20,000 bases of DNA from Rhizaria sp. SCN 62-66 (lineage: Eukaryota), in the NCBI GenBank assembly GCA_001724265.1, contig MEDY01000131.1:48565-68564 (forward strand). The letters run 5' to 3'. The position numbers and the translations under genes were made by a program. The notes beneath the pieces were generated by a model, which saw nothing but the letters and a program-made list of their open reading frames with translations, was not told the DNA's origin and did not search any database. Positions 1 to 20,000 of the stretch are shown here, one piece after another (position 1 is the stretch's first letter; each line of letters opens with the position of its first letter).

Positions 1-93
1 AATGAGAGTAGTACAACAAATGAGTTTATGGTTTGGACCGATACAGAGCTGATGAGAACGAATATTCCTAAATAACGTTAGTTCGATGCGTAC
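1..93 (-). other. 5' part of a spliceosomal intron (runs off window)
   Basis: CAG|GTACGC donor, similar to the GTACGT donor of the CFAP77 intron, with an abrupt change to AT-rich sequence. Confidence 0.75.
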
Positions 94-345
94 CTGGTGT
101 TTTGCGCGGAAGACCCACGCGCGCAGCGGCGTGCGCACAGTGAATACTAGCTCTCCTCGCGCCAGTCCGCGCGCGTCGAGCTCCACGGCGGCGTGCCGCA
201 GCAGCGCGAAGTCGGCGGGCGTCTTGGCGCGCGACGAGTGGTAGATGAACAGCGTACCGCTGAGGAGCACGCAGTAGTAGTCGCGGTACGCGTGGGGGGC
301 CGACGCCGGCGAAGGGGCGACGCGTACCGAGCCCGCTGGCAGCAG
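94..345 (-). other. PH domain (beta strands; C-terminal helix expected in the next exon)
   Basis: Translation LLPAGSVRV...AYRDYYCVLLSGTLFIYHSSRAKTPADFALLRHAAVELDARGLARGELVFTVRTPLRAWVFRAKHQ matches the PH pattern (R.Y.VL...L.Y; F.V.TP.R.W.F.A). Confidence 0.8.
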
Positions 346-3300
346 CGCGTCGGGCGCCGCCGGGGGCGCGATCACGGTGACGCTCCGACCGCCGCGATCG
401 CCGCGACTGCCGCGGTCGCCGGCGCCAGAACGACGGTGCTGTCGCCGCTGCCGCCGCCCGGAGGCCGAGGCAGACGCTGACAGCGACGACAAGCGCGCGC
501 CCAAAAACACCGCGCTGAGCTGCTGTTGCGGTGGGGCTGAGCCTAAGCGCCGGTCACCGGTCGCACTTCCCGCCGCCGCACTCGCACTGCCGCAGCCGCC
601 GTTGCAGCAGCCTGGCGGGAGAGAGAGTGCGACGCCCGTCAGCGCGGACCCAGACGCGGCGAGCTCCGGCACTGCGCAGGCGGCGGCGGGGTTCACCACA
701 AGCGCGGGCGCCGGCCCCGCCAGACCGGCGCCGACCACGGCGCCCGGCTGCGACTGGTACAGGATCGTCGCGGCGGCCAGCGAGGCGGCCAGCGCAGTAG
801 AGCCCGCGGCGGGCGCGCCGCCGATCACCACGGACGACGCGGACGCCGCGGCAACGGACGCCGCGGCGGCGGCGGCGGCAGACGCCGACTGGCCGGTCTG
901 CCCGCCCGCGGCGGCGGCGACGGTGGCGGCGCTGTTGGCCGACGCCTGGCCCGCGGCGGTCGCCGTTGCAGCGGCCGTCACCGGCAGCGTGAGCGCGCCG
1001 GCGCCCGCGCTGGCCACGGCAACGGCGGGCAGCGGCGGTGGCGGCATAAGACCGGTGTCGCCACCCGCCACCGCGCGCGCCGCTCTCGCAGCAACCTTGG
1101 CCGCCGCAGCCGCGCTGCCACCAGCGCCGCCACTGCCAGTCGAGTTTCTGTTGCTGTTCGCGGTGGCAGCGACTAGCGCGGCGGCGGCCTGCGCGGCGTT
1201 TTTGTACACCGCCGAGTCCGCCGCGGCGCCAGAGCCGGTGCTGTCCTCGAGCGCGAGTCCCAGATACGGTGCTGACAGCAAGTGCAGTCCGGGCGGCAGC
1301 TGCAGCATGAGCACGCCGCTGCGGTCCTTGGCACGAGAAAAGACCGGCAGACGCGAGAGCGACGGGCGCGGCGGCTCGACGGCGGGCAGCGCGGAGCCCG
1401 CGGCGGCAGCCACGGCGTTGGCCGCGCCCGCCGCCGCCAGCGCAGCCGAGTAGTCAGGCGCACTGGCGTGCGCCGCGGGCAGCAGCAGAGGCTGGATCAG
1501 CGCGGCGGCGGCTGCCCAGGCCTGGTCGACCGCGGCCGAGCCCCCGCCTACAGTCCCGTTATAAACCGCGCCGCTGTTGGTGCCGCTTGTGTTGGTACTA
1601 CTGCCGGAGTTTGTCGCAGCAGCCGCGGTTGGGGCGAAGCCACCGCCGGTCGCGGCCACGGTGGCAGCGCGCGACGCCGCGGACGCTGCGACCGAAGCCG
1701 CTACCGCAGAGGACGCGGCCGCAGAGGACGCGGCTGCCGCGGCCGCGGGCGAGGGCGCTGTCGTGGCTGCCGCGGCGGCCGCGGCGGCGACGGCTGCGGC
1801 GGCGGTGGCCGCGGGCGAGGTCTCGGCCGCGCGCGGCGTGATATCGAGAAACTGAGGTAAGATCGCGATCTGCGCGATGGTTTGCTCCGCGAGCGATGGC
1901 AGTGCAAGCCGCCACGCGCGCTGCTTGCCGCGCCACTGCGCGCCTGTGCACGCCGCAGCGAGCTCGCGGCGCGCGGGCAGCAGCAGCTGGCGCAGCGCGC
2001 GCGGCGACTGCACGCGGATCATCAGCGCGGCGCCGTCTGTCACGAGCCAAGCGGCGCAGAAGTTAGGCCGCATGCGCAGAGTGCGCCGCAGCGCGGCGAC
2101 GGCGTCGAGACGGCGCTGGCGCATGGCTGCGATGTCGTCGAGCAGCGCTGAGATGGCGTGGCGCATCATGTTGTACTCGTTGCTGAGCCGGATCACGACG
2201 CCGCGGTAGTGTTCGATGCGTTCCCGCTGGTCAGGAGTCAGTCGGAGCTGGCCGTTGGGCTGAGCAGCACCCAGAGCACCAGCGGCATTACCAGCGTTGG
2301 CACCTGCACCGGCGTTCGCAGCGCCGGCAGCAGCGCCAGGAGCAGCAGGCGCAGCGTCGGGGCCAGGGCCGGGGCCCGGTCCGCCACCGCCAGCCGCCGC
2401 CGCAGCATTGTTGTTATTCGGGTTATTGTTGTTGTTATCAGCAGCGCCGTTGGCATTATTCGCGTTGTTATTAGCGTTTGCATTGTTGATATTGGCATTG
2501 TTCGTGGCGGCATCCGCAGCAGCCTGCGCGAGCAAGAACTGCTCGTACTGCCCCATCTCCCTCTGTGCCGACTGCAACTTATCCCGTTTCGCATCAGACT
2601 CGGCCTCGTACTTGCGCACGCGCTCCGCATACGCGCGGCTCTGCTTGTCAACATCGTGCAGCTGTTTGAACGCCTGCGCAGCCTCGCCGGCCTCAGTCGT
2701 CCGCACCAGCCTCTGCAGCGCGTGGGACAGTTCAGACCCCGTATAGTGGCGCTCGGCGAGCCAGTACCGCATCTCGCTCTCTTCGTCGCCGCTCGCCAGG
2801 GCGGCAAGAGACAGCGGCGCGGAGTCGGCCGCGCTCACAGCCGCAGCGAAGGCCGCGATGCCCGCCGCGTCGCCCGCGCGTGGCAGAGGGAGGCCAAGCG
2901 CGGCGGCCACGGCGGCGGGGCGCGCGCCCAGACTGGGGTCCAGCGCGGCCGTGGGGGACCGAAACAGCCAGCGCCAGAACGCTCGCGGAGACGCAGCCGC
3001 AGCGCGCAGCTCGGCCGACGGAAACACCACCGCGCCCGAGCCAGCGCCAGAGCCTGCGCCAGAGCCAGCGGCGGATATCTGGGCTCGGAGCTGCACGAAG
3101 CGCCGGGCAGCAAGTGCACCATAAAAGCTACCGCACGGACTGGAGAGCACGCGCAGAGACGGCATGGTCTCCTCGTCGCTCTCACTCTCGGCGTCGTCGT
3201 CGTCGCTGTCGGCGCCGGTCAAGCCGCGGCGCTCGGGGTTGTTGTTGTTGTTCTGTTTGCTGCTGCAGTTCTTGTTGTTGTTGAAACCGCGCGTACTGCC

Positions 3301-5097
3301 ATTGCCCCCGTTGCTGGTGTTGGTGTGCGCGTGTGCGCAGTGTCGTGACGCGCACCTGAGCGACGAGACGGCGAGCGGCCCCGGCTGCGGCGAGAACGCG
3401 GGGTCATAAGCACCGCGTAAGGACAGCGGCACCGTCACACCCAGCGGCGCCCCAGCCCCAGCGCCAGCGCCAGCGCTGCCGCCAGAGACAGGCGCGGACA
3501 GGCCGCCGTGCGTTGCGGAGACCGAGGCGGCGGCGTCCGCGGCACGCGTGATCGCGAATTCCAGAGCTTTACGGCGGATGTACGGGTACGGCTCTTCCTC
3601 CAGTCTGCGCTCCTCCTCGTCCTCGTCGTCATCGTCACCCACCCTGGTGCTGTCGTTGTGGTGAGGGGCGTTGTTAGACCTCAGGTTGCGGGTGTTAGCG
3701 CGCGTGATGAGCGCAAGTTTGTCGATTTTTGCGTCCTCCTCGTCACTCAAAGCCCACTCAAGCGGGTCCGGGTCTGTCTCCGCCGCAGCCTCCGCCGCCG
3801 CCGCCGCCGCAGCCGCCATTGCCTCGGGTGCGCTCGTCGCGCGGGCGACAACTGCGGCCCTGGCGGCGGCGCGGCGCGCGGCGGCCTGCGTCGCCCGCTC
3901 CCGCACCTCATGGTCACACACGAATGCGCCTGCACCGGGGTCCGCTGCGAGCCAGCGCACGGGCGCCGACGAGGTTGCGCGGCCGAGCGCGCCCACAGCG
4001 ATGCGGTGCTGCAGCGCGGCGGGGTCGCGCGTGGCGTCGAGCGCGCGCTCGCGGTGCTCAATCCACGAGTGCGGAGTCACAGTCACTTCGGCCCAGTGCG
4101 CGCGCCAGCGCGGCGCGTCTTGCAGGATCTCGACGGGCAGCAGCGCCAGCGGCGGCGGCGGCGCGGCCACGCGCGTCGACGGGTCGGAGAAGTCCAGCGG
4201 CGCCAGCTCAGGGGAGTCGGACTGCGGCTGAGGCTGCGGGAACTGCAGCGCGCCTCCGTCCATCGCTGTCGCAGTGGCTGCAGTCGCAGCCGCCGTCGCA
4301 TTCGTCGGGGCAATGCTCGCGTGCACTGCGTTGCTGCTCTGCGTATTGGAGCCGTGGCTTTTATTGTTGTTAGTGGTGGGCTCGCGGAGAGCGCGGAGGG
4401 CGCGTAAGTGCGATGTCATATCCACACTGGGGGAGAAGAAATGGATGAAAAGGCCCGGGTGGTCAGGCGCGCACAGCGGCGTTGACGCGCGCAGCGCCGC
4501 AGACGCAGTGGCAGAGCCGCTGTCGCGCTCGGGGCTCGAGGACTTGCTGCAATCTGATACTGACGTCGACGACGATGATGGAGGAGGTGGAGGGAAGAGG
4601 TGCACTGAGGGCGGGGCGGGACGTGCCTTATGCGACGCGAAACCAATTGCGGGAAGCCCAAGACGCACACCATCGCAATCGTATGCGCCCGGGCTATGTA
4701 TTGCAGATGATTGAGCGGAGTTGGTCGAGTTTTGCTGGCGCGCCTGCGTCGTGAGGTGGACGGGGGTGCTGACGGGCAGCGTCAGCGCGGGGGGCGCGTG
4801 CAGAGCCGCCAGCGCGGCGTCCAGCCCCGGTGGAAAGGTGGACGAAATCACGTGCATCGGGTCGTACAGCAGCGACTCCGGGGGCGGCAGCGGGAGCGAG
4901 GCCGCGGCGGCAGAGACCGAGACGGAACCGCTGGGCTGCGACGCGCCTGTCGACACTGGGGCAGACGCCGACGCCGACAGGGCGCGCGGGGACAGCGCCC
5001 CCAACGCAAGCGGGGAACGCATAGGACTCAAAGCAAGGCCATTACCGCGGGTTCGTGGGCTGGCTGAGCCATCCCGCTGGTGTGGGGGCGAGAACAT
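94..5097 (-). CDS. Large exon (1668 codons) of an Ala/Ser/Pro-rich protein with coiled-coil-like segments and a C-terminal PH domain; gene continues beyond the left edge
   Basis: Read manually: the minus frame aligned to plus triplets starting at 1,4,7... has no TAA/TAG/TGA from 5187 to base 1. First ATG is at 5097 (MFSPPHQRDGS...). Third codon positions are GC-biased. The exon ends at CAG|GTACGC (94|93). The 5' end may instead be a splice acceptor near 5146 (tttaac...cctag). Confidence 0.85.
2407..2502 (-). repeat. Coding AAC/AAT-rich low-complexity tract (Asn/Ala-rich); a second poly-Asn tract at 3238-3285
   Basis: Runs of gtt/att triplets on the plus strand, in frame with the minus-strand exon. 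Confidence 0.7.
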
Positions 5098-6436
5098 GAC
5101 CCAAGAAGCGGTGGGCAATGCCTGCTGTGGTGGTCTCTGAGAGTGGCTAGGATTGATGCAAGATATGGGAAGGTTAAACAATCGACTTTAGAAATACACT
5201 AAGATATTTCAACTATATCAGTCGACTTATGCAAGACATGTACGCATATATTTCGTTTGACGGTCCTCATGATGAGCTGAATGGGGTACAAAAAGTCCGC
5301 TTTTTGAGAGCCCTTGGCGTTGCCAGGAACCAAGCATCTCGAGACGAAGCAGCGATATTTGCAAATTATGTTGCATACTGGCATGTGTCTTTTGAAAGTG
5401 GTCATTATCAACAGTAACTTGCAACTATTTATTTGCTCTACTATTACGAACGCGCTTTTGAATTTGAATAACGCTACTTCTCGTGAAGAAATACTGGGAA
5501 ACGTGACCATAGTCGCCTCATTGTCAACACTCGAAATGATGATATGCGATCAAATGTAGATATATATGCAGTCAATTTGAATCTCTGTTTACTATTAGCG
5601 TTGGAATTGCTGTTTTATGTTGATTATGCATATGTTTTTACTTAAAGCAAACCGTGATCGCGAAATATCTCGGTCAATTTTGTTTGCTTCAAGTCATCAT
5701 ATTTGCGTCTGCGTATGAAAGACGATTATTATTATTGGCACTTCGCGTTGAGTAGACAAACTCTAGGAAGCCAAATAATGCATCTATTCTAAATAAATCG
5801 TATATTATGTGTATGCCGCAACTTATCCTTGTGGCTCATCAGGACTTGTGCTTCTGTGGATCGGTAAAGAGTAACTGACAATCTGCTTCGACAAAATGAC
5901 TGGCTCACCGGATAGCACAAGGTCCTACGATAAAAACACTTTGCAGAAATAATTGTACTGGTGTCACAAATATTTTAAGAGTTCTCGAATTTTCAAAGCT
6001 CATGTCTGCATCTCTGGGTCTCATGGATTGTGATTTTGCGTCGAGGGGACGACTGTGAGCAGCTCGATGATGCTTCCAACTCGCTTCGCCGAGAAATCCA
6101 CTCTCTCCGTATCTATTCGGTCTCTAAGTCTCGTATACGTAATACTGCATATGATCAACACGACACTTACTTATATTCTACTTAACCTTCATGCCGGCAA
6201 CGATTATGCTGCATAACAGTCTTCCGAAGCATGACTGGATGAGCACTGGAGCCGACTTGAAGTTTTGTCGGAAATCCGCATTCATCGCAGCCCACATAGC
6301 TCACTGAAAGAAACCGCTGTGTTGGCATCCAATTTACTTGTTTTAGTACCTTTTATTGCCGAGCCCGCATTGCTCTGCGGAGAAGCCAGAGTGATCACGC
6401 CAAGCTTTTTAGTTTGCTCCCCACAACTTGGCAATC

Positions 6437-9400
6437 ATGTCTTCTCCAAGCCTGACTCCAAGTCATGCTGCGGCACCGGCAGCACATGTTGTCTCGTCGC
6501 CAGACGACGTGAACAGCAAGCTCTTGTCCACCGGGCCATGTGCGCTTATTGCAACTGCTCCTCTTCAGCGTCCTCATAGTTTGACGCTCCGCGCTTCGTC
6601 AACTGGCTCCAACGGCAGCTCCGGCTGCTCAAGCTCTGGCTCTCATGCCAGCTCTAACCACAACAACAGCTCAAGCACATCAATCTCGGTTACAATCTTG
6701 CAGCGCACTAGCCCGCTCATGTGTCCACCAGCGAGCGCGCCACACACCCTACATCATCCGACAACACGCCTCTTCGCAGCCGTCCCTCCAGCCACCGTCC
6801 CAGCCGCTCCCACAGTTCAGGCGTTCTCTTTCCCGACGCCAAACAACAGCTCGACCGGCGTGGGCAACAGTTCGTCGTCAACACATGGCAACCACGCGGC
6901 GCCTGAGCGTTCCCGCGCTCCTGCCAGGCTCGCGACGCCGCTGGACACGGATCTGTGCAGCGACGCTGTTTCTGACTACGGCAACAAAAACCGAGGCGAT
7001 GATGTTACAGCCATAACTGAAGCCACAACTGCAGAGCCGACGCTAGCGCGCGAGTCCGTGCTTCTGACAGACACAGCGCATGTACGTGAGGCTGCGCTGC
7101 GCGAGCGCGCTGTTCGCGAGGCTGCGCTACTACAGCAACAGCAACTGCAGTTGCAACAGCGACAGCAGCAAGCTCATGACCAGCCTCAGCCAGCGGCCGC
7201 ACTGCCGCAAGAGCCGATGTCGCAACAGCTTCTGTCCGCACAGCAGCAGCAAGACACCGCGGCGTTGCGTGAGGTCGCATTGCTGCAAGAGACAGCACTG
7301 TTACGAGAGTCAGAATCGCCGCACACGCGTGATATCATCACAGAGCCGGTGTTACTGCGTGAGCCAGTCTTGCCCCACCATGCAACGCAAAACCCTCAAG
7401 TGGCAATGACGCAGCCGCATGGGACGGCGCCGCTGCGGTCGGTTGCAGCGTCGCCAATATACCGCGCGTTTGACGTCCCCAGTCGCGCGAGCTCGCACTC
7501 GCACGCGCACTCACGCGTAAACTCGCACGCGCATCCTCATAGTGCGCATGCTGGTACTCAGCAGCATGTGAACTCTTTGCAGGTGCACAACGCCAACGCT
7601 GGCCTGGAGCACAGTCGTCATAAGAACGTCACGCCCAACAATCTCGGCGGAAGCATCTCGGTTGCCGCGGCGCCGACAGCAGCGCCATGCTCTGTGTGCA
7701 AGAAGCCGTCTGTTGCGTCGTCGCTGCCGTTGTCACCGCATTACATCTCAACCGCGCCAGGGCTAACTTCGACAACACGTCCTCCCATTTCGCCGCAACT
7801 AATGCGTCAGCCGTTGTTGGGAATTAGTTCTCGGTCGCCTTGCTGTGGCCGTCCTCATTACGTCCACAGCGCGAGCGTAAAGGCGGGCCTCCACGTTAAC
7901 ACAAACGTTAACAGCGACATTGCATCAAACGTCAACACTATGTCAAGTACACACAGCTCAGATGCAACCACCCATGTGTGCGTCAACACAGCCAAAGAGC
8001 GGCGTACTGGCACAAGTACCACGGCGATTCCGACCACTGAGCGTGGCAGCAGCACTGAGCACTCAACGGTATCAGAGCGCGCAGCTCTGGCGCGCCGCAC
8101 CAGTAGCGGCGCCAGCTTCAGCAGCGGCAGTATTCGGTCGCCGGCTGACATATCAGTAGCGCCAGCTTTGGGAACGGCAACGCCGACGACAGGCACACCG
8201 TCCGAGATCTCTGCGTTGCGCGTGTTTGTGCCCGTGTCGACGTCGTTTTCCGGCGCTGGCTTGCTGTCATCTGCGCGGTCACAGCGGTCGCTGGCTTCTA
8301 CGAAGCCCGAGTCGCCGCTGCTGTTTGTGTCACCGCACCAGTCTGAGACACCGGCGACAAGCACTGGTCTTGGTGCTTTGTCACAATCGCCGAGCACGGG
8401 GACAGTGGGAGGTGAGAGGCCTGGACAGCTGCGCACACACAGTCTTAACTTTGGCCCTGATCACGACACCATTGAAGAGATCGGTGAAATTGAGGCTATC
8501 ACCACTGATGACGGTGATGAAGATGATGGTCATATCAGCGCGTTTCCTTTCACAACGACATCGTCTCCTGCTAAGGCTACCGTCTTTACAGCGGTAGCCA
8601 CAGATGCGAATGAGACGCGTGCAAGTGCAGCGCATGAACTTGGTAACGTCGCAAACAAGGCTGAGGCAGCTGCACTGGCGGCGCGCACACATCTTGCAAT
8701 GACTGTAGCAAGGGAAATTAACACCGCACTTGAGAAAGAATTGGCGAAGCCGAGTCCGCCTCGAGGCTATTCGCACGGTCACCAAAGCTACACGCACGCA
8801 CAAACTCACAGTCACCACCTGCATTATGTACACAGTCAGAATCAGAGTCATGCCAAGGTTCACGGCCACCACGGTCATGGATACAGCCACGGTTATCATG
8901 ATGGGGTGCATCACAAGGCTGAGCAGGATCATGGGCAGCATGACAGTGTTTTTGAGAAGGAACGCAGCTTTAGTAGCAACTGCAGCCCTCACAGCCGCCA
9001 TGGAGACGAGCACGCCCACCATGTTCACCATCACCATCGCAGTAGCAGCAAAGACAAAGGCACATCGCCTCAAAGCGAGCATACGCCGCACTCAATAAAC
9101 TCGCGCGTTGACGTTCATTTGAAGTCAAAATCCGAGTCCCCGTTACAACCGCAGTCGCACTCAGCGATGCAGTCGCAGGCGCAGTCTCAGCCGCCTGCGG
9201 TTACGCTCTTCTTTCCAACCGCCAAATCTCCAGCTGCTCCAACTGCTCCGCGGCTGCGGCCAAAGCTTGCGCCCCTGCGCATTGCACAGTCGAGTGAAAT
9301 TATCTTCGCAACCGCGCTGCCGACACCGAGTGCGCGGGTGCCTTGTGCAGGCTTGCCAACGAGCAAGGGTGGTGGCGCTTTTGCGTTTCCAATCCCCGCT

Positions 9401-9811
9401 GCCAGCGCAAGCAGCAGCACTGCAAACGCATCAACAGTAGCGAACGCATCTCCGGGAGTTAACGCGCAAACAACGACTTCCGCTAGCTTAGCTCTACTGC
9501 CGCCAACATCAAGGCGCCCCGCGCCGCTTGCATTGCCAACTGCACCGGTAGCTGTTGCCGTCCCTATGACGGCCGTCGCGCGCGCAACTCCAGCGCCGCT
9601 GCAGCCGCGGCCAACGCCACTTATGACGCCGCAGCACCTCCGCATAGGTCCGCCGCATAAGCTGTTAACGCGTGATGCTGTGACTGGGGCGATAACTCCA
9701 CAAACTAAGTGCAAGACCGGAAAACAGGGTGTGTTTGCGTTTCCCGATCCCGGCGCTGCTGCAGCGCCGCTGTTGTTAGTGCAAGTGCGTCCGTCGCCGC
9801 GGGGTCAGTAG
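6437..9811 (+). CDS. 1124-aa disordered Ser/Ala/Thr/His/Gln-rich ORF; probably the N-terminal part of the downstream PP2C gene
   Basis: First ATG at 6437 (MSSPSLTPSH...). Ends at TAG 9809-9811, but the same frame stays open from 9812 to 16216 with no visible change in base composition. Confidence 0.75.
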   Translation: MSSPSLTPSHAAAPAAHVVSSPDDVNSKLLSTGPCALIATAPLQRPHSLTLRASSTGSNGSSGCSSSGSHASSNHNNSSSTSISVTILQRTSPLMCPPASAPHTLHHPTTRLFAAVPPATVPAAPTVQAFSFPTPNNSSTGVGNSSSSTHGNHAAPERSRAPARLATPLDTDLCSDAVSDYGNKNRGDDVTAITEATTAEPTLARESVLLTDTAHVREAALRERAVREAALLQQQQLQLQQRQQQAHDQPQPAAALPQEPMSQQLLSAQQQQDTAALREVALLQETALLRESESPHTRDIITEPVLLREPVLPHHATQNPQVAMTQPHGTAPLRSVAASPIYRAFDVPSRASSHSHAHSRVNSHAHPHSAHAGTQQHVNSLQVHNANAGLEHSRHKNVTPNNLGGSISVAAAPTAAPCSVCKKPSVASSLPLSPHYISTAPGLTSTTRPPISPQLMRQPLLGISSRSPCCGRPHYVHSASVKAGLHVNTNVNSDIASNVNTMSSTHSSDATTHVCVNTAKERRTGTSTTAIPTTERGSSTEHSTVSERAALARRTSSGASFSSGSIRSPADISVAPALGTATPTTGTPSEISALRVFVPVSTSFSGAGLLSSARSQRSLASTKPESPLLFVSPHQSETPATSTGLGALSQSPSTGTVGGERPGQLRTHSLNFGPDHDTIEEIGEIEAITTDDGDEDDGHISAFPFTTTSSPAKATVFTAVATDANETRASAAHELGNVANKAEAAALAARTHLAMTVAREINTALEKELAKPSPPRGYSHGHQSYTHAQTHSHHLHYVHSQNQSHAKVHGHHGHGYSHGYHDGVHHKAEQDHGQHDSVFEKERSFSSNCSPHSRHGDEHAHHVHHHHRSSSKDKGTSPQSEHTPHSINSRVDVHLKSKSESPLQPQSHSAMQSQAQSQPPAVTLFFPTAKSPAAPTAPRLRPKLAPLRIAQSSEIIFATALPTPSARVPCAGLPTSKGGGAFAFPIPAASASSSTANASTVANASPGVNAQTTTSASLALLPPTSRRPAPLALPTAPVAVAVPMTAVARATPAPLQPRPTPLMTPQHLRIGPPHKLLTRDAVTGAITPQTKCKTGKQGVFAFPDPGAAAAPLLLVQVRPSPRGQ

Positions 9812-9931
9812 TCGAGTATAGCTGAAGCAAGCAAGCTGCAGGTTTGTCTTCAACGGCGCGAGACAAAGCGCGGCAGCAACAGCGCAGCTATCGACATCGC
9901 AGGTGCGTCAACGACAGCCAGTGCAGCGACG

Positions 9932-12900
9932 ATGTGTGCGGTAGTGACAGCTCCACTTCGCGGCGACTGCGCGCGTGTTCGGCTTAAAGCAGCTGCAACA
10001 GAACGTGCGTTTTTAAGCTCCAAAAACAACGCAAATATTATTGCACGCGCCGCTAAGACTGGTGAATCAGTGCACGCATCGGGGGAAGGCAAATACGACG
10101 ACGATGTCTGCGCTGTTAACACTTGTCCTGACACACCCGTATCGCAAAGCAAGGTAGACATGACTCACATGAAGGGTTTCGGTGCGGCACCCGCATTGTC
10201 ACCCCGGCTCTGTGCATGCGTTTGCTCGTGTGCTAAGTCTGCAAAGCACGCGCCGGGCTACGGGCGCGTGCTTCGCGTGGAAACTGCGCGCGCGCTCCTG
10301 CACGAGTACGTGTTTGTTTCTTCGTCGCAGAACGTGACTGTAAGGCCTGATCAAGGCGACGTTTATTTGCGTCCTCGCAATGCGCTACAGTTAACGCAAC
10401 GCAAGGAACTATCGTTGGTTGCTGATGTGGCGGCGACGTTAGCACAGACTGATGACCTATATCATGCACGTGTTACAAACACTGTCTCATCAGTCGCGAT
10501 TGAAATTGAAGTTATGGATACCATGCGTGATAAAGGCTACTTTCCCGAAACTGAGAGCAACGACAGTAGCAGTAACAACGTGGGCAACGGCGCCGAGTTA
10601 ATAGCGTCATGCACTGTTAAGGGTCGGCAAAGCAGAAAGTTTGGTTTCGACCCATCGCCACCCACATCTCTGCGTCAAGCCGTCTGCACCCCCGGCGCGG
10701 CAATGATCATGGACCGCGGTGTGCAATACGGATTAGGACACCGCCTTAACAACCCCGCGCGGCGCGGTGGTCGTCGCATCTCACCGTCACACGCTGACCT
10801 TGCGCGGCGTTTGCGCGAAGGCCATGGCAAGCTGTACGACGATGAAGGCGACATCCCGGAGGAAGATGAGGACGGGATCGACGGCAACGGGGCTGAAGGC
10901 GGAATCGAGCTGCTTTCGCTCTCGTTGTCTGGCGACGGAGACGTAACTGCAACAGTCAGCGTGACAAGCAGTGGCGTTTCTTACAGCAGCTCGGTCACAG
11001 CTTCAGGCACCATAAATGAAACAAGCAGCACGCCGATCACTGTGCACAGCGACGACTCATGCAGTGTTAATCCTAGCTGCAGTCGTAGCTCCGAGAGCCG
11101 CTGTTGCTCAAGGTCCAAGGGCAGCAAAACCCGGAGCCCTGATAAGCAAAGCCAAAAGCGCGATCGTGCTCAGCACCGCAAACAGCACGCATGGCCTGCT
11201 TTTGGCTCGCCTCCGCCTCACAGCGAGCTAAACATTAATGACAATGCAGTTGACACCGAAGACCTTGATAGCAGCCATGGCGACTCGCTTGATAATGCTG
11301 TTAATGATAATGCGCGCACATCACCGCAGCCTCTTGGTAACGTTAAAAGCACAAGCGCAAGGTCATCAAACCGCGCAACGCAACGCGGTTACAGTGGCCC
11401 TTACGCTCCGCCTCAAGGCCGGGAAGTTGCTCCAAAGCACTTCTTTGGTCCTGCACTCGACTTATCCACGCTGCGCAGCAAAGGTGCACGCAGTGTCGCT
11501 GGTGGTTCTGTTGCTACAAGCAGAAGTGTGTCACTAGAGCGCAACAAAAGCGACCCAATTAACAACTCGCTCAAGATCAAGAGCAATGCCGACTCAGAAC
11601 TTGCGACAACAGCGCGCGTTGTCAGCCCGTTTTGTACGTTGCAGTCACCGCTTTCAGCGTTTCATTCACGCGCACTACGTGGAACAATCTCGGACACAAG
11701 TACTACGACCGCAGCAACGGTTGAAGCAGATCATGGGGAGAGCACGTCAACGCACGATGGTGAGCGCACTGGCTCACAGAGCGGTCAGCACAAAAACGGC
11801 TATAAATCGAGTCGAGGCACTTACGATCGTTCGATCTCTGTTGCTGGGGACACTAGTGTTGCCGGCAGCGTGACTGGGGCCGGACACTATGAGAGTGCTA
11901 GTTCCATCGACAACGGCCCCGGTGGCAGCAACTACAAAGGCAGCCGCACAGAAAGTATTTGTCAAGGTACTGCATCGCGGATTACAGCTAGCTCCAAGTC
12001 TGTTCGTCCTCTTCGTTCAGCTCTCGCGGCCACATGGACTGTGGCACGCGTCAACGACGGCTGCATGGATATGCTTACTGTTGCGCCCGCTAGCGCTGCG
12101 CTCACTCCAGCGTGTCTTCCGTTTCACATTCACTCATTACCACACACCGCCAACGTTGATAGAGCGGTCATTGGTGAAGCGTCACAACAGACACCGCTGT
12201 TGCAATGCGCAACTCTTCAGCAGCGACCACTGTTGGCGGCATCATTGCGCCGCGGCGAACCGTGGGTTATGGAAGACACGTTTCTCGCGCGGCCCACTCT
12301 GGGACCAACGCAACCGGATGAGGCTGTGCTCGTAATTTGTGACGGCCACGGCGAGTGGGGCCGTGCTGTTGCTGAAGTTGCCGGGATGGAACTTGTGGCA
12401 CATGCTGCTGTGGAAGTTGCAATTCCTACGTTTATGGGATCACCAGCGCATAGCGTCTCTGCAATTAAGAGTGCGCGATTGCAGTCACCTGATCCTATAA
12501 AACAATCATTGTCCAGCAAGCATTTGAGTACATCTCAGCCTTTTAAACGCCCACCGCATTTGCGCAAGGTTACTGCAAAGAGTGTTGGTGCCAAGAAAGC
12601 GTTTTTTCCGACTACTCAAAGTGCAACACACATTAGAGAAGCAACAATGTCAATGCTTCCATTAGATGTGCACCGTGAGTCGCCTATTGCTGAAACAGCA
12701 ATTGCTGTTGTCCCGCCAATCACGGTAATTGCATCCGCACCAGCACAAGAACATACGGCACACAGTGCAATGAACGCGGCCAATACAGCAGCAACGGCTA
12801 TTGCTGCGGCTACAGCTGCAGTAGCGTCATCGTACAACGTTGTTGTTGCGTCCGCGCACGCAGCTGCTGCTGCACGGATTGCGACAATTGCTGCTGCAGC

Positions 12901-15900
12901 TGCGGAAGCTGGGAATGAAACACCACTAACTGTTGTTGACCTTGGCAGTGACTTTGCGGGCGATTCCAACACAGGTCTTCAGAGTGAAATGTTGCCATCA
13001 GCACTGACTGACCGCAAATCCTTCCGCCATTACGCTGCGTTGCAGCAGCGTTCATTGCCGCCTGCCTTAGCACAAAGTGACGGCGACTCAGTCCACAGCT
13101 GTGACCGTGACATCAGCTCCGGTGATGAAGAGGACGCTGACGCACAAGACAACGGCAACAGCAGCAGCGTGTCTGACAGTGCTCTTGGTGTTGCTGTTGT
13201 AGAGCCTAGCCCGACGTCAGTCGTTACAACGCACGATCTGCGTGTGCGCGCAGAGCAAAGTCGGCTAAATGTCAATCTGGATTCTTGTAACAATGACGAT
13301 GGCGCTAACAGCACTGAAGAAGAAGCAGATATTAGCGGTCATGTCTTACCTCGTTCCGCGTCTTGGGAGTTTACTGGATATGAAACCGCGCCACTTTGGC
13401 ACAAATTGAGCACGCCGCCACCTATGCTGTTTCAGCAACCTGCTCCGACTGCTGGTCACATTCCGGTGGCCGTAGTGACGGTGCATCGGTTACGCGATGT
13501 GCCCACAGTACCCACCGCATGCGCCGCGCTTCAAGACGCGTGGATTCCCGCGCCGCGTGTTCATGAGAATAATGCAGTTGCACTCAACACTACAACAAGC
13601 CCAGCTACATTTTCAGGTGATCAAGACTTAGGATTCGCAACGCAACTTGAAGAAAACAACAGCGGCGAATGTGACAGTGGCCCCGCAACCGCGACACTCG
13701 CGAGTTCCGCATCTGTTCGAGAAAGCTCGTTGCCGAAATCGAATGATAGCAAAGATGGTTGTGTTGCGCGGACGACACAGTCACTCACGGTACAGCCTGC
13801 TTCATTGCAAAGCGACAGAACTGAACAGTCGACCGCTGGAGGTAGTAGTTCAGCTGGGCAGATTCGCGGCAAAACACGCTCCGATACTGGCACGCGTCCT
13901 ATAATTGCAGCGCCACGCTACACCAGTGTTACAGAAGAGTCAGCAGTGACACGCAATAGTGCCACTGAGAGTGATGGCACTGCAAGCAGTGACGTGGCCT
14001 TTACTCGTGCGCGGAGCCAGAGTAGCAGTCTTACAAAGAGCACATTTGCACCGCCGCAGTTGTTTGTCGCAAAATCTAATGGTGGTGACAGCAAGAGCAG
14101 TCGAAGTCGTAGCGCAATCGAGTCAGCGTTAAACACGACAGTCGGCACACAACATCAGAGCTGGCTTACAATCCATCCTGCGCAGTCTCCGGCGCGCGCA
14201 AGCCTCACCGTCCCGCGGTCGCCGTCGCTGACAACGATGGAGTCCGCGCTGTCTGCCTCAAGCGTACCCAACCCTACTATCGGTGCGCTTACTGTAACAG
14301 AAACTGGCGCGCAAGAAAGCCTCGGTCTGTGGGGACAGGTGCAAGCTGACTTGGAGTCCTGCGGCCGGAGTGCTGTGATTAAAGCATGCAAGGCGACGCC
14401 ATACTACGGTGCACCGACTGCTCTTGCGATTTTAGCAAATAAGTTGCCTCTGAACACTACCATAGCTTCTCGGCGCAAGCATACCTCCCAGCAGCCCGCT
14501 GCCTCTACTGCGGGACTGTCTCCGGTTGTTTCTGGTGCAGTTGACTATGCGCAGTCAGATACATCGCGGCTTACTAGTGCAACAGAGCTCGGTGGACACA
14601 CCGTTATCGTGCCCGTACACGAGTCTCCTGCACTTTTGGCAGACCGCTGGGCTGCGGACGCCGCAATGCATGCCGTCCTTACAGGGGCATTTGCGCAAGC
14701 GCAAGCGCGTTGTATTGGGGTTTTGTCCAAGTCAGAGTATAACTACCACTATCCGGCGGTCGTTGCTCGGGCTCCCGATGGCACTACGGTCGCAGGCAAG
14801 CTGTCACAGCGTGCAACAACGGACACTAAGACAGTGGTTAAAGGCGGTGCGGCAGCGCTTGTCGTGCGCGTCAGTGGTCGCCTGCGCCGTGTGTGGGCGG
14901 CGAGCACTGGCGACTGCAAGGCCATTTTGTTTCATATGCCGCAAATAATTTCAAAGTTCGCCAACGGCGGCTATGGCGCTTCAAGTAACATTAAAGTGGC
15001 CACTGCGCCGAGCATTGTCCCTGGAGTAACTCACGATGACTTAGCCCTTGAGCCTAGCCTTGTCTCTAACTCTGCAAAGACAGCCGCGCACGCGCGCCTA
15101 CAAGCGTCTCCCCGCGGGCCGCCACCAGCGCAGACGCCGCGCGTTGTCACAACGCCATCTGCTCGCGGTGGCAACGCAGCCTTCTCGTTTGCTGCCCGCC
15201 CGCCCCTCTCTCCTGCACACGTGTCACCACGGTTTCGTGGTAGTGCAACAGGAGCTGCACAGCCAGTGGCGTGCACAGCAACAACTTGCTGTTTAACAGC
15301 TTGCACAGGTCTCTCCCCGGCGTGCGTCACCGTTCGCGCCACAGTTACAGCGACACCGCTCACGCTTGAGCACCATCCGCAGCGCGCAGACGAGGCCGCG
15401 CGCTTGCTCGCAACGCAAGTGCCCGTGTTACCAGTGCGCGGCCGATTGCGCGTGGCAGGAGAGCTCGCGCTCACGCGTTCTCTTGGTGACTTAACGCTAA
15501 AACCCGCTGTATCCGCAACGCCTGAGTTGGCACGCGCAGGCTTTACTGTAGGAGACGTGCTAGTAGCCGCATCGGACGGGCTCTGGACTGTGGTGACTGT
15601 GGCCGAGGTTGAAGCCGCATTGGCAAAAGCAACCGTAGCGTGCCGACACAGGGACGACGCAATGACTGTAGGTGAGCGAAACGACGCGGTTTGCACAAAC
15701 TGCAGCAATAGTAACTCAAGTGAGCTCCTTTCATCTCCGCCGCCTCCGCCACAAGATGCAGCCGAGATGCAGGCTGGTCTTAGCGGCAGCGCGCACGAGC
15801 GTTTTTGGACCTCGCATCACGGCGGTACTAATGCTACAGAAGTCCGTGCAGCCGCTGCGCCCGCAGCGGAGAGCAGCAGCACCTCCTCGGCACATCACGC

Positions 15901-16216
15901 GGTTCCACACGTTGATACTGACGCTATCGATAACGCGCGGTGTCGCTCGGCGCTGTCGTCGCAGTGCCCGTGTATTTTAGAGGCAGCGCGCGCACTGTCA
16001 CAGCTCGCGCTCGACCGCGGCTCGCGCGACAACGTGACTGTGGCCGTGATGGACTTAACGCCGTACATTGCGGCCGCATGGGCAAGCGCGGCGGCGGCCA
16101 GCGAGCGCGCCGCCACGAAGGTCAACATTACTAGTAGCAGCAGCAGTAGCAGCAAAGCTGCAATGAAGCAGGGTAGTCGCGGGCAGAGTGCGACTGACAC
16201 TGCTGACAATCTATGA
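9932..16216 (+). CDS. PP2C/PPM-family Ser/Thr protein phosphatase with large low-complexity insertions (frame open from 9812)
   Basis: Motifs in canonical order: RRG..MED (12269), ICDGHG (12341), GGAAALVV (14843), STGDCKA (14903), LTLEHHP (15368), LALTRSLGD (15476), ASDGLW (15575), RGSRDNVTV (16028). Stop TGA, then AT-rich 3' region. Confidence 0.92.
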   Translation: MCAVVTAPLRGDCARVRLKAAATERAFLSSKNNANIIARAAKTGESVHASGEGKYDDDVCAVNTCPDTPVSQSKVDMTHMKGFGAAPALSPRLCACVCSCAKSAKHAPGYGRVLRVETARALLHEYVFVSSSQNVTVRPDQGDVYLRPRNALQLTQRKELSLVADVAATLAQTDDLYHARVTNTVSSVAIEIEVMDTMRDKGYFPETESNDSSSNNVGNGAELIASCTVKGRQSRKFGFDPSPPTSLRQAVCTPGAAMIMDRGVQYGLGHRLNNPARRGGRRISPSHADLARRLREGHGKLYDDEGDIPEEDEDGIDGNGAEGGIELLSLSLSGDGDVTATVSVTSSGVSYSSSVTASGTINETSSTPITVHSDDSCSVNPSCSRSSESRCCSRSKGSKTRSPDKQSQKRDRAQHRKQHAWPAFGSPPPHSELNINDNAVDTEDLDSSHGDSLDNAVNDNARTSPQPLGNVKSTSARSSNRATQRGYSGPYAPPQGREVAPKHFFGPALDLSTLRSKGARSVAGGSVATSRSVSLERNKSDPINNSLKIKSNADSELATTARVVSPFCTLQSPLSAFHSRALRGTISDTSTTTAATVEADHGESTSTHDGERTGSQSGQHKNGYKSSRGTYDRSISVAGDTSVAGSVTGAGHYESASSIDNGPGGSNYKGSRTESICQGTASRITASSKSVRPLRSALAATWTVARVNDGCMDMLTVAPASAALTPACLPFHIHSLPHTANVDRAVIGEASQQTPLLQCATLQQRPLLAASLRRGEPWVMEDTFLARPTLGPTQPDEAVLVICDGHGEWGRAVAEVAGMELVAHAAVEVAIPTFMGSPAHSVSAIKSARLQSPDPIKQSLSSKHLSTSQPFKRPPHLRKVTAKSVGAKKAFFPTTQSATHIREATMSMLPLDVHRESPIAETAIAVVPPITVIASAPAQEHTAHSAMNAANTAATAIAAATAAVASSYNVVVASAHAAAAARIATIAAAAAEAGNETPLTVVDLGSDFAGDSNTGLQSEMLPSALTDRKSFRHYAALQQRSLPPALAQSDGDSVHSCDRDISSGDEEDADAQDNGNSSSVSDSALGVAVVEPSPTSVVTTHDLRVRAEQSRLNVNLDSCNNDDGANSTEEEADISGHVLPRSASWEFTGYETAPLWHKLSTPPPMLFQQPAPTAGHIPVAVVTVHRLRDVPTVPTACAALQDAWIPAPRVHENNAVALNTTTSPATFSGDQDLGFATQLEENNSGECDSGPATATLASSASVRESSLPKSNDSKDGCVARTTQSLTVQPASLQSDRTEQSTAGGSSSAGQIRGKTRSDTGTRPIIAAPRYTSVTEESAVTRNSATESDGTASSDVAFTRARSQSSSLTKSTFAPPQLFVAKSNGGDSKSSRSRSAIESALNTTVGTQHQSWLTIHPAQSPARASLTVPRSPSLTTMESALSASSVPNPTIGALTVTETGAQESLGLWGQVQADLESCGRSAVIKACKATPYYGAPTALAILANKLPLNTTIASRRKHTSQQPAASTAGLSPVVSGAVDYAQSDTSRLTSATELGGHTVIVPVHESPALLADRWAADAAMHAVLTGAFAQAQARCIGVLSKSEYNYHYPAVVARAPDGTTVAGKLSQRATTDTKTVVKGGAAALVVRVSGRLRRVWAASTGDCKAILFHMPQIISKFANGGYGASSNIKVATAPSIVPGVTHDDLALEPSLVSNSAKTAAHARLQASPRGPPPAQTPRVVTTPSARGGNAAFSFAARPPLSPAHVSPRFRGSATGAAQPVACTATTCCLTACTGLSPACVTVRATVTATPLTLEHHPQRADEAARLLATQVPVLPVRGRLRVAGELALTRSLGDLTLKPAVSATPELARAGFTVGDVLVAASDGLWTVVTVAEVEAALAKATVACRHRDDAMTVGERNDAVCTNCSNSNSSELLSSPPPPPQDAAEMQAGLSGSAHERFWTSHHGGTNATEVRAAAAPAAESSSTSSAHHAVPHVDTDAIDNARCRSALSSQCPCILEAARALSQLALDRGSRDNVTVAVMDLTPYIAAAWASAAAASERAATKVNITSSSSSSSKAAMKQGSRGQSATDTADNL

Positions 16217-17025
16217 TATTGTTTTGATAACATTATGACTCAGCATATTTATTGATACAAACAAAAACATAAGACAATCTTTATTTTGCAAAATACACGC
16301 ATAGTACTTAAGTCAATCAATGATGACCCATGTTTAAGATACTTGTGATATCAAATGCATGCATACAAAATCGAATGTATGGATTCGTTTACCATCCGTC
16401 AAGATGGCATAAAAAGCACGCGAGTCGCCACGATCCAGACAAAGAGTTGAAGAACGTTACGAAGGACTGTGAAACATGCGTTATCTGCCAATTTTCGATC
16501 GCATTGGAAGAGGGCTACAAGAGCCCACGCATGCAGCAGTGTCGGAGCAAAATCGAGTCACAGTCACACACTCAACACTTGGGAGTGTTAAACGAGACGT
16601 CAGAAGAACATGATAATGTAAAATCACTGTGGTGATGCTGTGGTATAGCATATCAGCGATAAGCAGAAACATGTGACACAGGGTGGCGCGGCGCAGCGCG
16701 AAGCGAAGCTAGGTAAGTAAGTGAAGACAAACAATCTTTGTACAGGTCCACGTTGACACATGTAACCCAATTGATGGTCGCATACACAACACGTAACACG
16801 TGATGTCAGAAATGAACACGAATTAGTTCATGATGCATACATGAACGAATGAACAAAAGGTTTCAGAATAGTGTCACCCAACAAGCGAGAACACGCTGTG
16901 CTGTGTTAAAAGTCGCAGCAGGATTGACACATATACAGGACAGAAGAAGGCTGAATAGCAGCCAATAGAAAACAAGCATGGAAGTATAATATATCCCCCA
17001 CAGTACGTGAATTCCGTGCGCTTAC

Positions 17026-17481
17026 TTAGATCTCCATCGACTGGCCCTGCTCGCCCTCAGCCGCGGCCATCGTCTCAGTGCCAGCGTCGCCACCGACGCA
17101 CGCAGCCTGGGGGCCGTAGGTGTTGACAATGCGCACGCGCGAGGGCACGTCCTTGAAGCGCGCCATCTTAAACGGCTCCGGTGGCGGGGGCTGGTTGCGT
17201 GGCTTGTAGTGGCCCTGAGACGCCTTGGTGGGCTGCGGGGCGCGGAAGCCGCCGGAGCTTGCCGCCGTGGCGCCCGCAGCGCGCGTCGTGGAACCGCGGG
17301 CCGTAGTGTCGCCCGAAAAAGCCGCGGTGGCGCCGTTGGCGGTGCTGTTGGCGTTCTGGAGGGACTGAGTGGACGCGATCCACTGTCGCTGGTACTCGTT
17401 GGCCATGACGTTGTTGATCGGCGTCGAGGGCTTTGAGGGGCGGCCGTGAGTCATGTTGGGGTCAACACCCTTCACAGTGAC
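17026..17481 (-). CDS. CFAP77: CFAP77-like protein, exon 2 (spliced product 244 aa)
   Basis: THGRPSKPSTPINNVMANEYQRQW and PTKASQGH...EPFKMARFKDVPSRV match the recalled CFAP77 C-terminal motifs (G.P.RPSTP.....Y...W; KM.RF..V). Stop TAA. Confidence 0.82.
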   Translation of the reverse strand, partial: VTVKGVDPNMTHGRPSKPSTPINNVMANEYQRQWIASTQSLQNANSTANGATAAFSGDTTARGSTTRAAGATAASSGGFRAPQPTKASQGHYKPRNQPPPPEPFKMARFKDVPSRVRIVNTYGPQAACVGGDAGTETMAAAEGEQGQSMEI

Positions 17482-17616
17482 CTATAGAGAGAGAAATGAC
17501 TTAATAATAAGCAAGTATTTTGTGAGGCAAGTTCAAAAGAGTCTCTGGTAGCAAAGGTCAAATGTGTCAGAGAAGAAGGGAGAAAGCAAGAAAAGGTGTT
17601 GTTCAGGGGGACGTAC
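17482..17616 (-). other. 135-nt phase-0 GT-AG intron of the CFAP77-like gene
   Basis: GTACGT...tttctctctctatag; pyrimidine-rich, contains in-frame stops, and joins the two ORFs in frame. Confidence 0.85.
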
Positions 17617-17895
17617 GTGGGCTTGATTGCGGACAGCAGCGGTCTTGCTTGCCGCAGCCGCAGTCGCAGAGGAGGGCTTGCTGCCCAGATGAGTCTTCCA
17701 GTTGCCGACGCACATGCCGACGCCCTGGTCGTCCGCGGGGCGATCCGAGCGGCCGTACGCAAAGTTCTCAGGGGGCAGCGTGTGCGTCGAGGGGCGGACC
17801 TGCCCGACAGGGGCGCGGACGAGAAGCGTGTTGGTCTGCTTGTTGCGGGGAACGTTTGGCTTGCGGTACGTGCCCTCGTCGTAGATGTCAGCCAT
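17617..17895 (-). CDS. CFAP77: CFAP77 (DUF4483 / C9orf171)-like cilia- and flagella-associated protein, exon 1 (93 codons)
   Basis: NTLLVRAPVGQVRPSTHTLPPENFAYGR...DDQGVGMCVGNW matches the recalled CFAP77 N-terminal block (N.LL.R..LG......LP...F.YG). Ends at phase-0 donor CAC|GTACGT. Confidence 0.82.
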
Positions 17896-17964
17896 GATTG
17901 GGTCTCTGTGGAGGGCGATGAATCACGACGAGGAGAGCAAAAGTGAGTGAGGCGGTGTTGGGAG

Positions 17965-17973: not shown

Positions 17974-18213
17974 GAATATAGGTATACATTATCCGTTTTT
18001 GGAAATGCAAAATCGTTGAGATATATTACACGTCGCATTCACTATAAAAACATCACAGTGCCCCTTTTGACGACGGCTAGCACAAGAAACATCGGGTTGA
18101 AAAGAACAGCCTTGACCTCGCCGGGATGTAACGGTCGGTCGGCAGTTGTCGACTGAGCACGCAGAGCGAAAAAATACAAAACCATCGTCCGGTGTGATTA
18201 AATCTGCATAAAT

Positions 18214-18531
18214 GACAATAATACGTTATTGTCTGTATGATGCTTGTACATGTCATGTAAATTGAGATGCTTATCTCGATAAGTAGTGGGATATGTCAGG
18301 ATATTAATATCCTACATCGTATTATACCGTTTGCGTCACTGTACGACAGAGCGTGACTTTAGTAAAGCATCGAGAATTTGTTGTCAAAATTGCAACGGGG
18401 ACATACATGTACATGTACTTCACAAAAGTCTGAGTAGATAGCATCCCATATGTTTACATCTTGAGTCCTTAAAAAACACTTTTGACACTTTCAATTGCCC
18501 CAGAAGCTATATTTAATATTACATGTAATAT
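18214..18531. repeat. Cluster of short palindromes and inverted repeats
   Basis: GACAATAA-tacg-TTATTGTC (18214-18233); CTTATC-tc-GATAAG (18270-18283); AGGATATTAATATCCT (18298-18313); TACATGTACATGTA (18404-18417); ATATTACATGTAATAT (18516-18531). Confidence 0.7.
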
Positions 18532-18584
18532 GAATAAATAAACATCCATAAACAAGATTAACGAGCCTGGATGAAGATGAGTCC

Positions 18585-19295
18585 TTATTAATACCACTCA
18601 AAGTTGTTTGGGGTGAAGCCCATGGGTCTTCTTTTTAGTTGTACAAAAATCGTGGCTACGTTGTCCAGGTCCTCATCTGCATCTGTCTCGTTGACTTCAA
18701 ATGTTTCGTTTTTGCGACTTCGTCCATACATTTCTGGGGCAAGAGTGTGAAAGTCCATTTTAGACATGCCTCTAGGGCTGACTTAGTCGAGTTGTGTGCG
18801 ACATCACTGTTGTTGACCAGGCTCATCCTGAGCTTATTAATCCTACTCTGCAGAGTCACACTTTCCTTGGCCGCAGCGCTTGCGTACAGTTGAGTCGCAC
18901 ACAGTTGCTGGAAAATTTCATCGAATGACACAAACAGCACTGGGAGCATTTTTACTTGTTAGACTCAAAGAATTGACAGTAATAATAAAGAGAGGAGTCG
19001 TACTCGATGGTGTGGCGTCTCCTGAAGTTGCGGCGTCGGCGGAAGCAGTTTCACTCACCGGTTTGCTCTGTGTCACGCGCACTGTCTGTGGGGCTTCAAT
19101 CGCTGCTAAAGTAAAGGTCGCAGTAACATGGCCAAACTCCACCTTGTCTACCCCGGTCTTGCGACTGCTGTCAGTACTGCAGCTGTTGCTGCTATCGTCG
19201 ATCGACAAGCATCTAGTATCGTCTTGCTCGTCACTGTCATCTGTGTCGATGAGATTTCTCACATCGGCGATATTCTTGCCAAAGCTTTGAATCAC
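18585..19295 (-). pseudogene. Coding-like island split across three reading frames (pseudogene or indel-affected gene), product unknown
   Basis: Higher GC than flanks. Overlapping minus-strand ORFs 19295-18918, 18949-18656 and 18767-18588 run consecutively, and the last ends in tandem TAA TAA. Confidence 0.4.
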
Positions 19296-20000
19296 ACATG
19301 TATAATATTATTAATAGTAATTGTAGACGCAACGTGAGATATGTTCATGCACCACATTTGACAGTTCAAAATGTGCGGATGCGATTATACTCGATTGTGA
19401 ATGACTAGTGATGTCTCGATTTCTCATCCTAGTACGTACGTACATCTGTATTAAAGAGTATATGCGTATTAATAACAATCTCCGTTTTATGAAAACCCCA
19501 AACTTGTGAGATATTTTGACTGATATTTGACTGGCGCTCGTAAAGAGTTGTCCAATGCCTTTTCTGACAAACAGCCCAGAAAATGGGTACTAGATGCTGA
19601 CATATGAATACGGACACAATGAACAAATACTACATGTAATTTTGACAAAATACGAATACGGCAAAATAATAATGATATGGCGACACAAGTGGCAAGATAT
19701 AGAGAGAAAAACATGGATATGATGCATATGAAATTTCTAAATGTACATTTGTACAATACTACTCGTTTAGTTAAAAAATAAACAAATCTTGAAGTGATGC
19801 ATGTAACGTCGCGATGTGAGCGGCAAAACCATTGGTCAGAAGACCACAGCAAACTATTGCCATCCACGCACGGCATACTCCTACGACAAGACTTCAGTGA
19901 AAAGTGAGATCGAGGTCGATTTTTTCTTTAGCAGCCCGAGATTGCATGTGATAGTGACGTGTCGCATCAGCAATCACAGCTGCAGCAGACTCGTCGGCAG

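Follow-up and report, generated by a model that had tools for sequence, protein, structure and literature searches.

A single in-frame TAG in a giant reading frame with a PP2C match and its possible origin as a young nonsense allele

Results

Reading frame across the in-frame TAG

We analyzed a 20,000-nucleotide (nt) stretch of contig MEDY01000131.1 from Rhizaria sp. SCN 62-66 (positions 48,565 to 68,564 of the forward strand), which is referred to below as the window. Its main feature is a very long reading frame on the plus strand that is interrupted by a single TAG and that matches the PP2C phosphatase family downstream of this codon. Direct reading of the sequence placed the TAG at 9809-9811 (+) in the context ...GGT CAG TAG TCG AGT ATA GCT..., and an earlier annotation made from the letters of the window (the sequence-only reading) had given this context as the sole interruption correctly to the base. 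The two stop-to-stop open reading frames (ORFs), 6413..9811 and 9812..16216 (+), have starts that are congruent modulo 3 and are thus in the same frame. Translation of 6413-16216 yielded 3,268 positions, of which one is an internal stop and the last is the terminal stop. Both results confirmed the earlier statement that the ORFs 6437-9811 (ORF1) and 9932-16216 (ORF2) lie in one frame. The long frame ends with TGA and holds the one TAG besides.

Counted through the TAG, the long gene 6437-16216 comprises 3,259 codons, and ORF2 is open over 2,134 codons when it is counted from 9812. As had been described, the 40 codons past the TAG, from 9812 to the ATG at 9932, are open. The five other frames of 6413-16216 contained 92, 190, 119, 87 and 131 stops, and the longest stretch without a stop in any of them was 261 codons. 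Because these frames carry 87-190 stops each, both halves are much more open than would be expected by chance.

Base composition and codon usage of the two halves

The 120 nt that separate the TAG from the first ATG of ORF2 (9812-9931) showed a guanine plus cytosine (GC) content of 0.58, compared with 0.41 and 0.42 in the real spacers of the window (5188-6436, 1,249 nt; 16217-17025, 809 nt). The earlier observation that the gap is GC-rich, whereas true spacers are AT-rich and at least 0.8 kilobases (kb) long, was therefore confirmed. A codon log-odds model was trained on 10502-16213 only and was scored in 150-nt segments of sequence from 6413 to 10688. Frame 0 gave the best score in 51 of these 58 scoring windows and frame +1 in none, and the frame-0 score remained non-negative across the TAG junction. 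The GC content by codon position was 0.62/0.57/0.58 and 0.61/0.57/0.51 in the two halves, and 0.70/0.63/0.78 in the neighboring gene.

A frame shift at the junction was also considered and rejected; at 9638-9863, frame +1 was strongly negative and frame +2 was no better than frame 0.

The five other frames together contained 619 stops in 16,336 codons (3.8%), and the chance that unrelated neighboring genes would share a frame with the 40 spacer codons open was estimated as approximately 1/3 x 0.21 = 0.07. Based on the shared frame, the common codon usage, the exon-like GC content and the lack of an AT-rich spacer, we concluded that 6437-16216 probably is, or until very recently was, one gene. 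The view of the sequence-only reading that two ordinary separate genes are unlikely is thus supported by frame, codon log-odds, GC content and stop counts alike.

Presence of the TAG in other assemblies

A contig recovered independently from metagenomes (L001) corresponds to window positions 8618-10439 and showed 0 mismatches in 1,822 nt, with the TAG included. It was obtained in a metagenome scan in which 369 pattern matches led to a single locus, identical to the window. A further contig, which spans 8559-10439 in the sequencing runs X2 and X3, bridges the TAG with 0 other letters. The tables of X2 and X3 are identical, and X2 shares its study with the probable source; together, the two runs therefore amount to approximately one confirmation. 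X2 and X3 belong to different studies and years, yet their contigs, depths and loose ends are identical over 13 kb, and they may be one data set that was filed twice. Because of this identity, they are not to be counted as independent.

The exact split products were found in the protein collection, with ORF1 (1,124 residues, P0003) on three contigs and ORF2 from the ATG at 9932 (2,094 residues, P0001) on six contigs. The contigs that carry these products reach a length of 72 kb. No fused product was present among the proteins of 1,792-5,704 residues that were searched. None of the five insertions or deletions (indels) listed for four runs lay in 9700-10000, and no repeats that would suggest an insertion were found around the TAG. 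Since L001, the X2/X3 contig and the split products agree and no listed indel is located nearby, both a sequencing or assembly error at the TAG and a pair of compensating indels are unlikely. These two explanations had been among the five alternatives of the sequence-only reading, and neither was borne out; at the junction, no other frame scored better than frame 0.

Strain differences within ORF2

Run X4 was found to hold a second strain that is 90-95% alike. The strain differences were analyzed for the best-supported 40 of 282, and 38 of these 40 were located within ORF2. With respect to codon position, 20 of the 40 fell on third, 14 on first and 6 on second positions. Among the 38 differences in ORF2, 21 were synonymous and 17 were not. 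This pattern indicates a sequence that was probably translated and constrained, with purifying selection acting while most of the divergence arose. Because ORF2 appears to be translated and constrained, the stop would have to be either very young or bypassed. Coding constraint past the stop, as expected of readthrough, was thus found (2,134 open codons; 21 of 38 differences synonymous), but the same would be expected from a young nonsense allele.

Three further features of the X4 contigs were observed. One contig carried an in-frame insertion of 6 nt behind 11594, and one contig of low depth (3.8) skipped 140 nt (13796-13935), which is not a multiple of three. Additionally, a 546-nt contig at 10118-10663 contained 14 differences.

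Predicted domains of the encoded protein

The coordinates of the features described here are listed in Table 1. We propose from the sequence that the protein consists of a putatively disordered N-terminal half and a long C-terminal half that is rich in inserts and contains a PP2C domain. ORF1 matched no Pfam family at E<=0.01, nor at E<=1. Three FxFP motifs were found in ORF1, a number that was reached by none of 20,000 shuffles of ORF1 (0/20,000), and this non-random count suggests that the ORF1 frame is the frame under selection. FxFP is described as the F-site pattern to which active ERK2 binds (PMC4459106). The motifs of ORF1 may accordingly resemble the ERK F-site or DEF motif (Phe-x-Phe-Pro), with three copies above any of the shuffles; the comparison covers the four-residue pattern, and a mitogen-activated protein (MAP) kinase as partner would be hypothetical. 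Of the earlier description of ORF1 as a docking-type half, the motifs themselves proved to be real and non-random, while their function as docking sites stays a suggestion from the sequence. A His-rich tract was also observed in ORF1 at approximately 8850-9080, where H runs, including HHVHHHH, alternate with G/S/Y/V; it could bind metal ions.

The description of the downstream part as a phosphatase half is supported by matches above the Pfam cut-off and to solved plant PP2C structures. In particular, ORF2 matched the PP2C family (PF00481) with an E-value of 2.6e-16 and 60.5 bits against a cut-off of 20.3, over profile positions 124-221 of 255. The core region matched the solved plant PP2C chain 3kdj_B with an E-value of 1.2e-18, and the alignments to 3kdj_B and 3nmn_B comprised two stretches of ORF2, in which the columns of SLGD, SDGxW and DN are included. 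The strings MED and DGHG, which may represent the N-terminal metal-site motifs of PP2C, were located by eye and have no statistical support; the isolated pieces gave no Pfam match at E<=1 and no match to a solved chain at E<=10. Upon comparison with the PP2C/PPM family (PF00481; plant ABI1/HAB1-type structures), the C-terminal 60% of the domain was above the cut-off, with SLGD, SDGxW and DN present. The differences concern size and spacing; the protein described here is approximately 10 times longer than typical PP2Cs, and the putative N-terminal motifs lie approximately 1,000 residues upstream across large inserts.

Table 1. Coordinates of the long reading frame, its in-frame TAG and the motifs and domain matches of the predicted protein.
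Feature	Position	Strand	Remarks
ORF1, N-terminal half, 1,124 codons	6437..9808	+	low complexity; Ala/Ser/Thr/Pro-, Gln- and His-rich tracts; no Pfam family
FxFP motif 1 (FSFP)	6824..6835	+	ORF1 residue 130
FxFP motif 2 (FAFP)	9380..9391	+	ORF1 residue 982
FxFP motif 3 (FAFP)	9734..9745	+	ORF1 residue 1100; 21 codons upstream of the TAG
Single in-frame TAG	9809..9811	+	CAG-TAG-TCG; codon 1125 of the long gene
40 open codons from the TAG to the first ATG	9812..9931	+	GC 0.58, exon-like; no pyrimidine tract; frame-0 codon log-odds positive
ORF2 from the first ATG, C-terminal half, 2,094 codons + TGA	9932..16216	+	carries the PP2C match
Candidate N-terminal PP2C strings, MED ... DGHG	12266..12361	+	by eye only; statistically unsupported
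PP2C core match	15266..15673	+	residues 1819-1954 counted from 9812; SLGD and SDGLW motifs
PP2C C-terminal match	15962..16063	+	residues 2051-2084; RDN motif; second stretch of the alignments to 3kdj_B and 3nmn_B
Terminal TGA of the long frame	16214..16216	+	

Search for homologous proteins

The whole read-through protein was compared with protein sequences, and the 7,995 scored candidates yielded only P0001, the window's own product. An exhaustive profile-free search of the junction piece (1,167 residues) against 1.8 billion representatives revealed two proteins, both of which were the window's own. Fragment searches gave no scored match among 7,999 candidates of 220-700 residues and none among 714 candidates under 220 residues. 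The exact pattern had no match in prokaryote genome contigs, and the metagenome scan revealed no orthologue, as its sole locus was identical to the window. No usable match was found for the N-terminus of ORF2 in the ESM Atlas. Outside the PP2C domain, the protein thus had no relatives in the libraries searched.

Neighboring genes and source organism

Downstream of the long gene, a CFAP77 gene was found at 17029-17895 (-), with Pfam PF14825 in both exons; it has 244 codons and ends with TAA. In the ESM Atlas, the CFAP77 exon fell among CFAP77-like clusters. The CFAP77 intron at 17482-17616 (-) is 135 nt long, GT..AG, phase 0 and pyrimidine-rich (0.75), with a GC content of 0.40. A contig of run X5 skips exactly this intron, and the X2/X3 contigs run through it. 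No RNA run was listed for the window; X5 is labeled as RNA-Seq complementary DNA (cDNA), but it is flagged 'RNA? (probably DNA)'. The two gene ends that had been named earlier, TGA and TAA, were confirmed for ORF2 and CFAP77, respectively. The runs that hold the window are labeled bioreactor, wastewater and similar, and we propose that the source is an uncultured, flagellated, intron-bearing eukaryote of wastewater-type metagenomes.

Several additional features of the window were observed. A divergent gene upstream at 1-5187 (-) has no Pfam family; it extends beyond the end of the window, within which 1,729 of its codons lie. The composition of this gene differs from that of the long gene; its GC content is 0.65-0.78 per 500-nt segment and its GC content at third codon positions (GC3) is 0.78, whereas the GC3 of the long gene is 0.51-0.58. 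The region 18100-20000 is AT-rich (GC 0.40-0.45) and contains short, unconvincing ORFs on both strands. With respect to start contexts, CAATC-ATG was found at 6429-6441 and 17890-17902 and GACG-ATG at 9932, which are too few starts to judge. The depth of X5 was 3.53 in the bin 9540-9973, and X5 provided no cover in 5200-6067 and 14748-15181; these two gaps in cover were not used as evidence.

Discussion

The TAG is present in the DNA of several assemblies, and the two halves on either side of it form one frame with common codon usage and without spacer features. As the best reading of this arrangement, we favor a young, fixed nonsense allele in one giant PP2C gene, and we do so tentatively, with somewhat less than even confidence. 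The weights that we give to this and to the other readings rest on the absence of the signals that the rivals would leave and on general base rates. According to the nonsense-allele reading, 6437-16216 would be one gene for a giant protein with FxFP motifs and a PP2C domain, in which UAG occupies codon 1125. This UAG would act as a stop and would represent a young nonsense allele that became fixed in a near-clonal population. Translation would mainly yield the N-terminal fragment of 1,124 residues, and the phosphatase half would be made by background readthrough alone or not at all, with too little time elapsed for it to decay. Ribosomal termination at the UAG and the recent origin of the mutation are what we infer here. 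The signals expected from the rival explanations, namely a leaky stop context, a downstream fold, intron features and a notable TAG frequency, were absent. Strain-specific premature stops are common in long, fast-evolving, dispensable genes of natural populations. The locus resembles nonsense alleles and young unitary pseudogenes in that one stop interrupts an intact, codon-biased frame and no further lesion is found downstream. The difference is that such cases usually come with a known sister allele in which a sense codon is present; none was retrieved here, and both the polarity of the change and its age are deduced indirectly. Among the five alternatives offered by the sequence-only reading, the nonsense allele came out as the most likely, with the intactness of ORF2 as the objection to it.

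Several observations weigh on the side of that objection. ORF2 is open over 2,134 codons, its PP2C match is above the threshold and it contains the metal-site motifs of the C-terminal part. Additionally, 21 of the 38 listed differences in ORF2 were synonymous, which indicates purifying selection; a disabling stop would then have to be very young, or the downstream half would still be translated. The stop was also present wherever the site was read, in data sets labeled 2015-2017 and on up to six contigs, although these sets may not be independent. Because it was present wherever read, the stop appears to be fixed in the sampled sets and not a rare variant.

Programmed readthrough of the UAG, an alternative which we regard as rather unlikely, was retained from the sequence-only reading. 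Termination would yield an FxFP scaffold of 1,124 residues, and decoding of the UAG by a near-cognate transfer RNA (tRNA) would yield a scaffold-PP2C fusion of 3,259 residues, comparable to Drosophila kelch or viral replicases. A single stop lies between two long halves in the same frame, ORF2 is intact with mostly synonymous differences (21 of 38 listed), the stop is fixed in every assembly in which the site was read, and a combination of docking-like motifs with a phosphatase would make functional sense. None of the known readthrough signals was present. To our knowledge, cellular readthrough genes only exceptionally have extensions longer than 2,000 residues, which also counts against this reading. 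Leaky stop contexts are given as C at +4, CAAUUA or CUAG, and A at -1 and -2 (PMC4615788), whereas the context here, CAG-UAG-UCGAGU, has U at +4 and G at -1 and contains neither CAAUUA nor CUAG. The 130 nt 3' of the stop were not more stable than shuffled sequences, with a minimum free energy of -44.4, compared with a mean of -46.8 for the shuffles (z +0.69; 147 of 200 shuffles folded as well), and no Rfam family was matched in the window. Drosophila kelch offers a close likeness, as one in-frame stop separates two long ORFs of one messenger RNA and the long form adds a large part; the kelch stop is UGA, it is read through in a tissue-specific manner and a predicted 3' stem-loop stimulates the process (bioRxiv 10.1101/2020.06.22.165522). 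In contrast, the stop here is UAG, the downstream structure is no better than chance and the long form would be hypothetical. The UAG could also be a sense codon, or be efficiently suppressed by a tRNA whose anticodon is CUA. UAG-only codes are known from the rhizarian exLh, in which UAG encodes Leu, and from Iotanema spirale, in which it encodes Gln; in both, UAG occurs in frame while UAA and UGA end genes (PMC5304391). Within the window, two gene ends are visible, TGA and TAA; neither of them is TAG, which agrees with this arrangement. The frequency of the codon does not, as the same source reports several in-frame UAGs per gene, with 384 in 71 genes for one of the known cases and 204 across 126 genes for the other (PMC5304391). 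The long gene contains one TAG in 3,259 codons, compared with 5 occurrences of its rarest sense codon, and the two neighboring genes contain none in 1,729 and 244 codons. This corresponds to one in approximately 5,230 codons across three genes, not to frequent UAG, and it supports the earlier argument that a lone TAG weighs against reassignment. No tRNA gene was found in the 20-kb window, a weak result given the window size. Reassignment of UAG is unlikely on this evidence, and together with suppression we consider it very improbable.

The remaining explanations take the UAG as a true stop that ends the first of two genes, or remove it from the transcript or from the DNA altogether. A gene fission, by which the locus would now be two genes derived from one, would have the TAG terminate ORF1 and ORF2 be expressed separately from the ATG at 9932, with a transcript starting within the 3' end of ORF1. 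The intact and apparently constrained ORF2 would fit this, as would a first ATG that lies 40 codons past the stop with a purine at -3; gene callers have recorded the two products apart, though such calling is mechanical. The gap of 120 nt with a GC content of 0.58 is, however, unlike the real spacers (809-1,249 nt, GC 0.41-0.42), the ATG at 9932 does not have the CAATC-ATG context common to the ORF1 and CFAP77 starts (two to three starts compared), and no transcript start is visible in the contig data. We regard fission as quite unlikely. A short in-frame spliceosomal intron that removes the TAG is a distinctly improbable explanation. The organism has GT-AG introns, as evident from the removal of the CFAP77 intron (17482-17616) in the X5 contig, and a phase-0 candidate of 57 nt, GTGCGT..CAG at 9785-9841, is present; both this string and the 18-nt string at 9804-9821 were found at the places given by the sequence-only reading. 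However, when 400 nt on either side are considered, the TAG is enclosed by 711 in-frame GT/GC..AG pairs; a candidate pair is thus to be expected by chance and carries no weight. In 22 of these pairs, the donor is GTRNGT. In the 20 nt preceding the acceptor, the pyrimidine share of the 22 candidates was 0.30-0.60, and their GC content was 0.55-0.74, compared with 0.75 and 0.40 in the verified intron, which bears out the earlier remark that the candidates are unlike the CFAP77 intron. No pyrimidine tract (at least 13 of 15) occurred anywhere in 9500-10100, and no splice joint at 9700-10000 was found in four runs, X5 among them, in the pieces listed (32 of 155). An intron over the TAG is thus unsupported by the sequence features. 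An artefact or a correction at the RNA level, that is, a base or indel error of the assembly or an RNA that differs from the DNA at the TAG through editing or strain heterogeneity, is highly improbable. One of the four differences of X5, an A>G, is not among the 40 of 282 differences listed, which leaves some room for it. Three separately reported assemblies nevertheless agree letter for letter, the split products occur on three and six contigs, none of the five listed indels is near the site and nothing in the source organism points to editing.

If the young nonsense allele is the correct reading, this would be an ordinary gene caught just after its truncation, and the value of the finding would lie mainly in annotation, with P0003 and P0001 as the halves of one orphan gene. 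The public runs already hold a divergent strain and cDNA of the organism, and the case can therefore be decided cheaply. If the stop is bypassed, the extension would rank among the longest that are known from cellular readthrough, in a lineage without recoding studies and in a context outside the current rules. The UAG would then be a site of programmed recoding in a protist that lives freely, at which the ribosome may set the ratio of a decoy scaffold to a docked phosphatase; we think this rather unlikely to be so. Such recoding, if true, would depend on none of the contexts in which readthrough is known from animals, yeast, plants and viruses.

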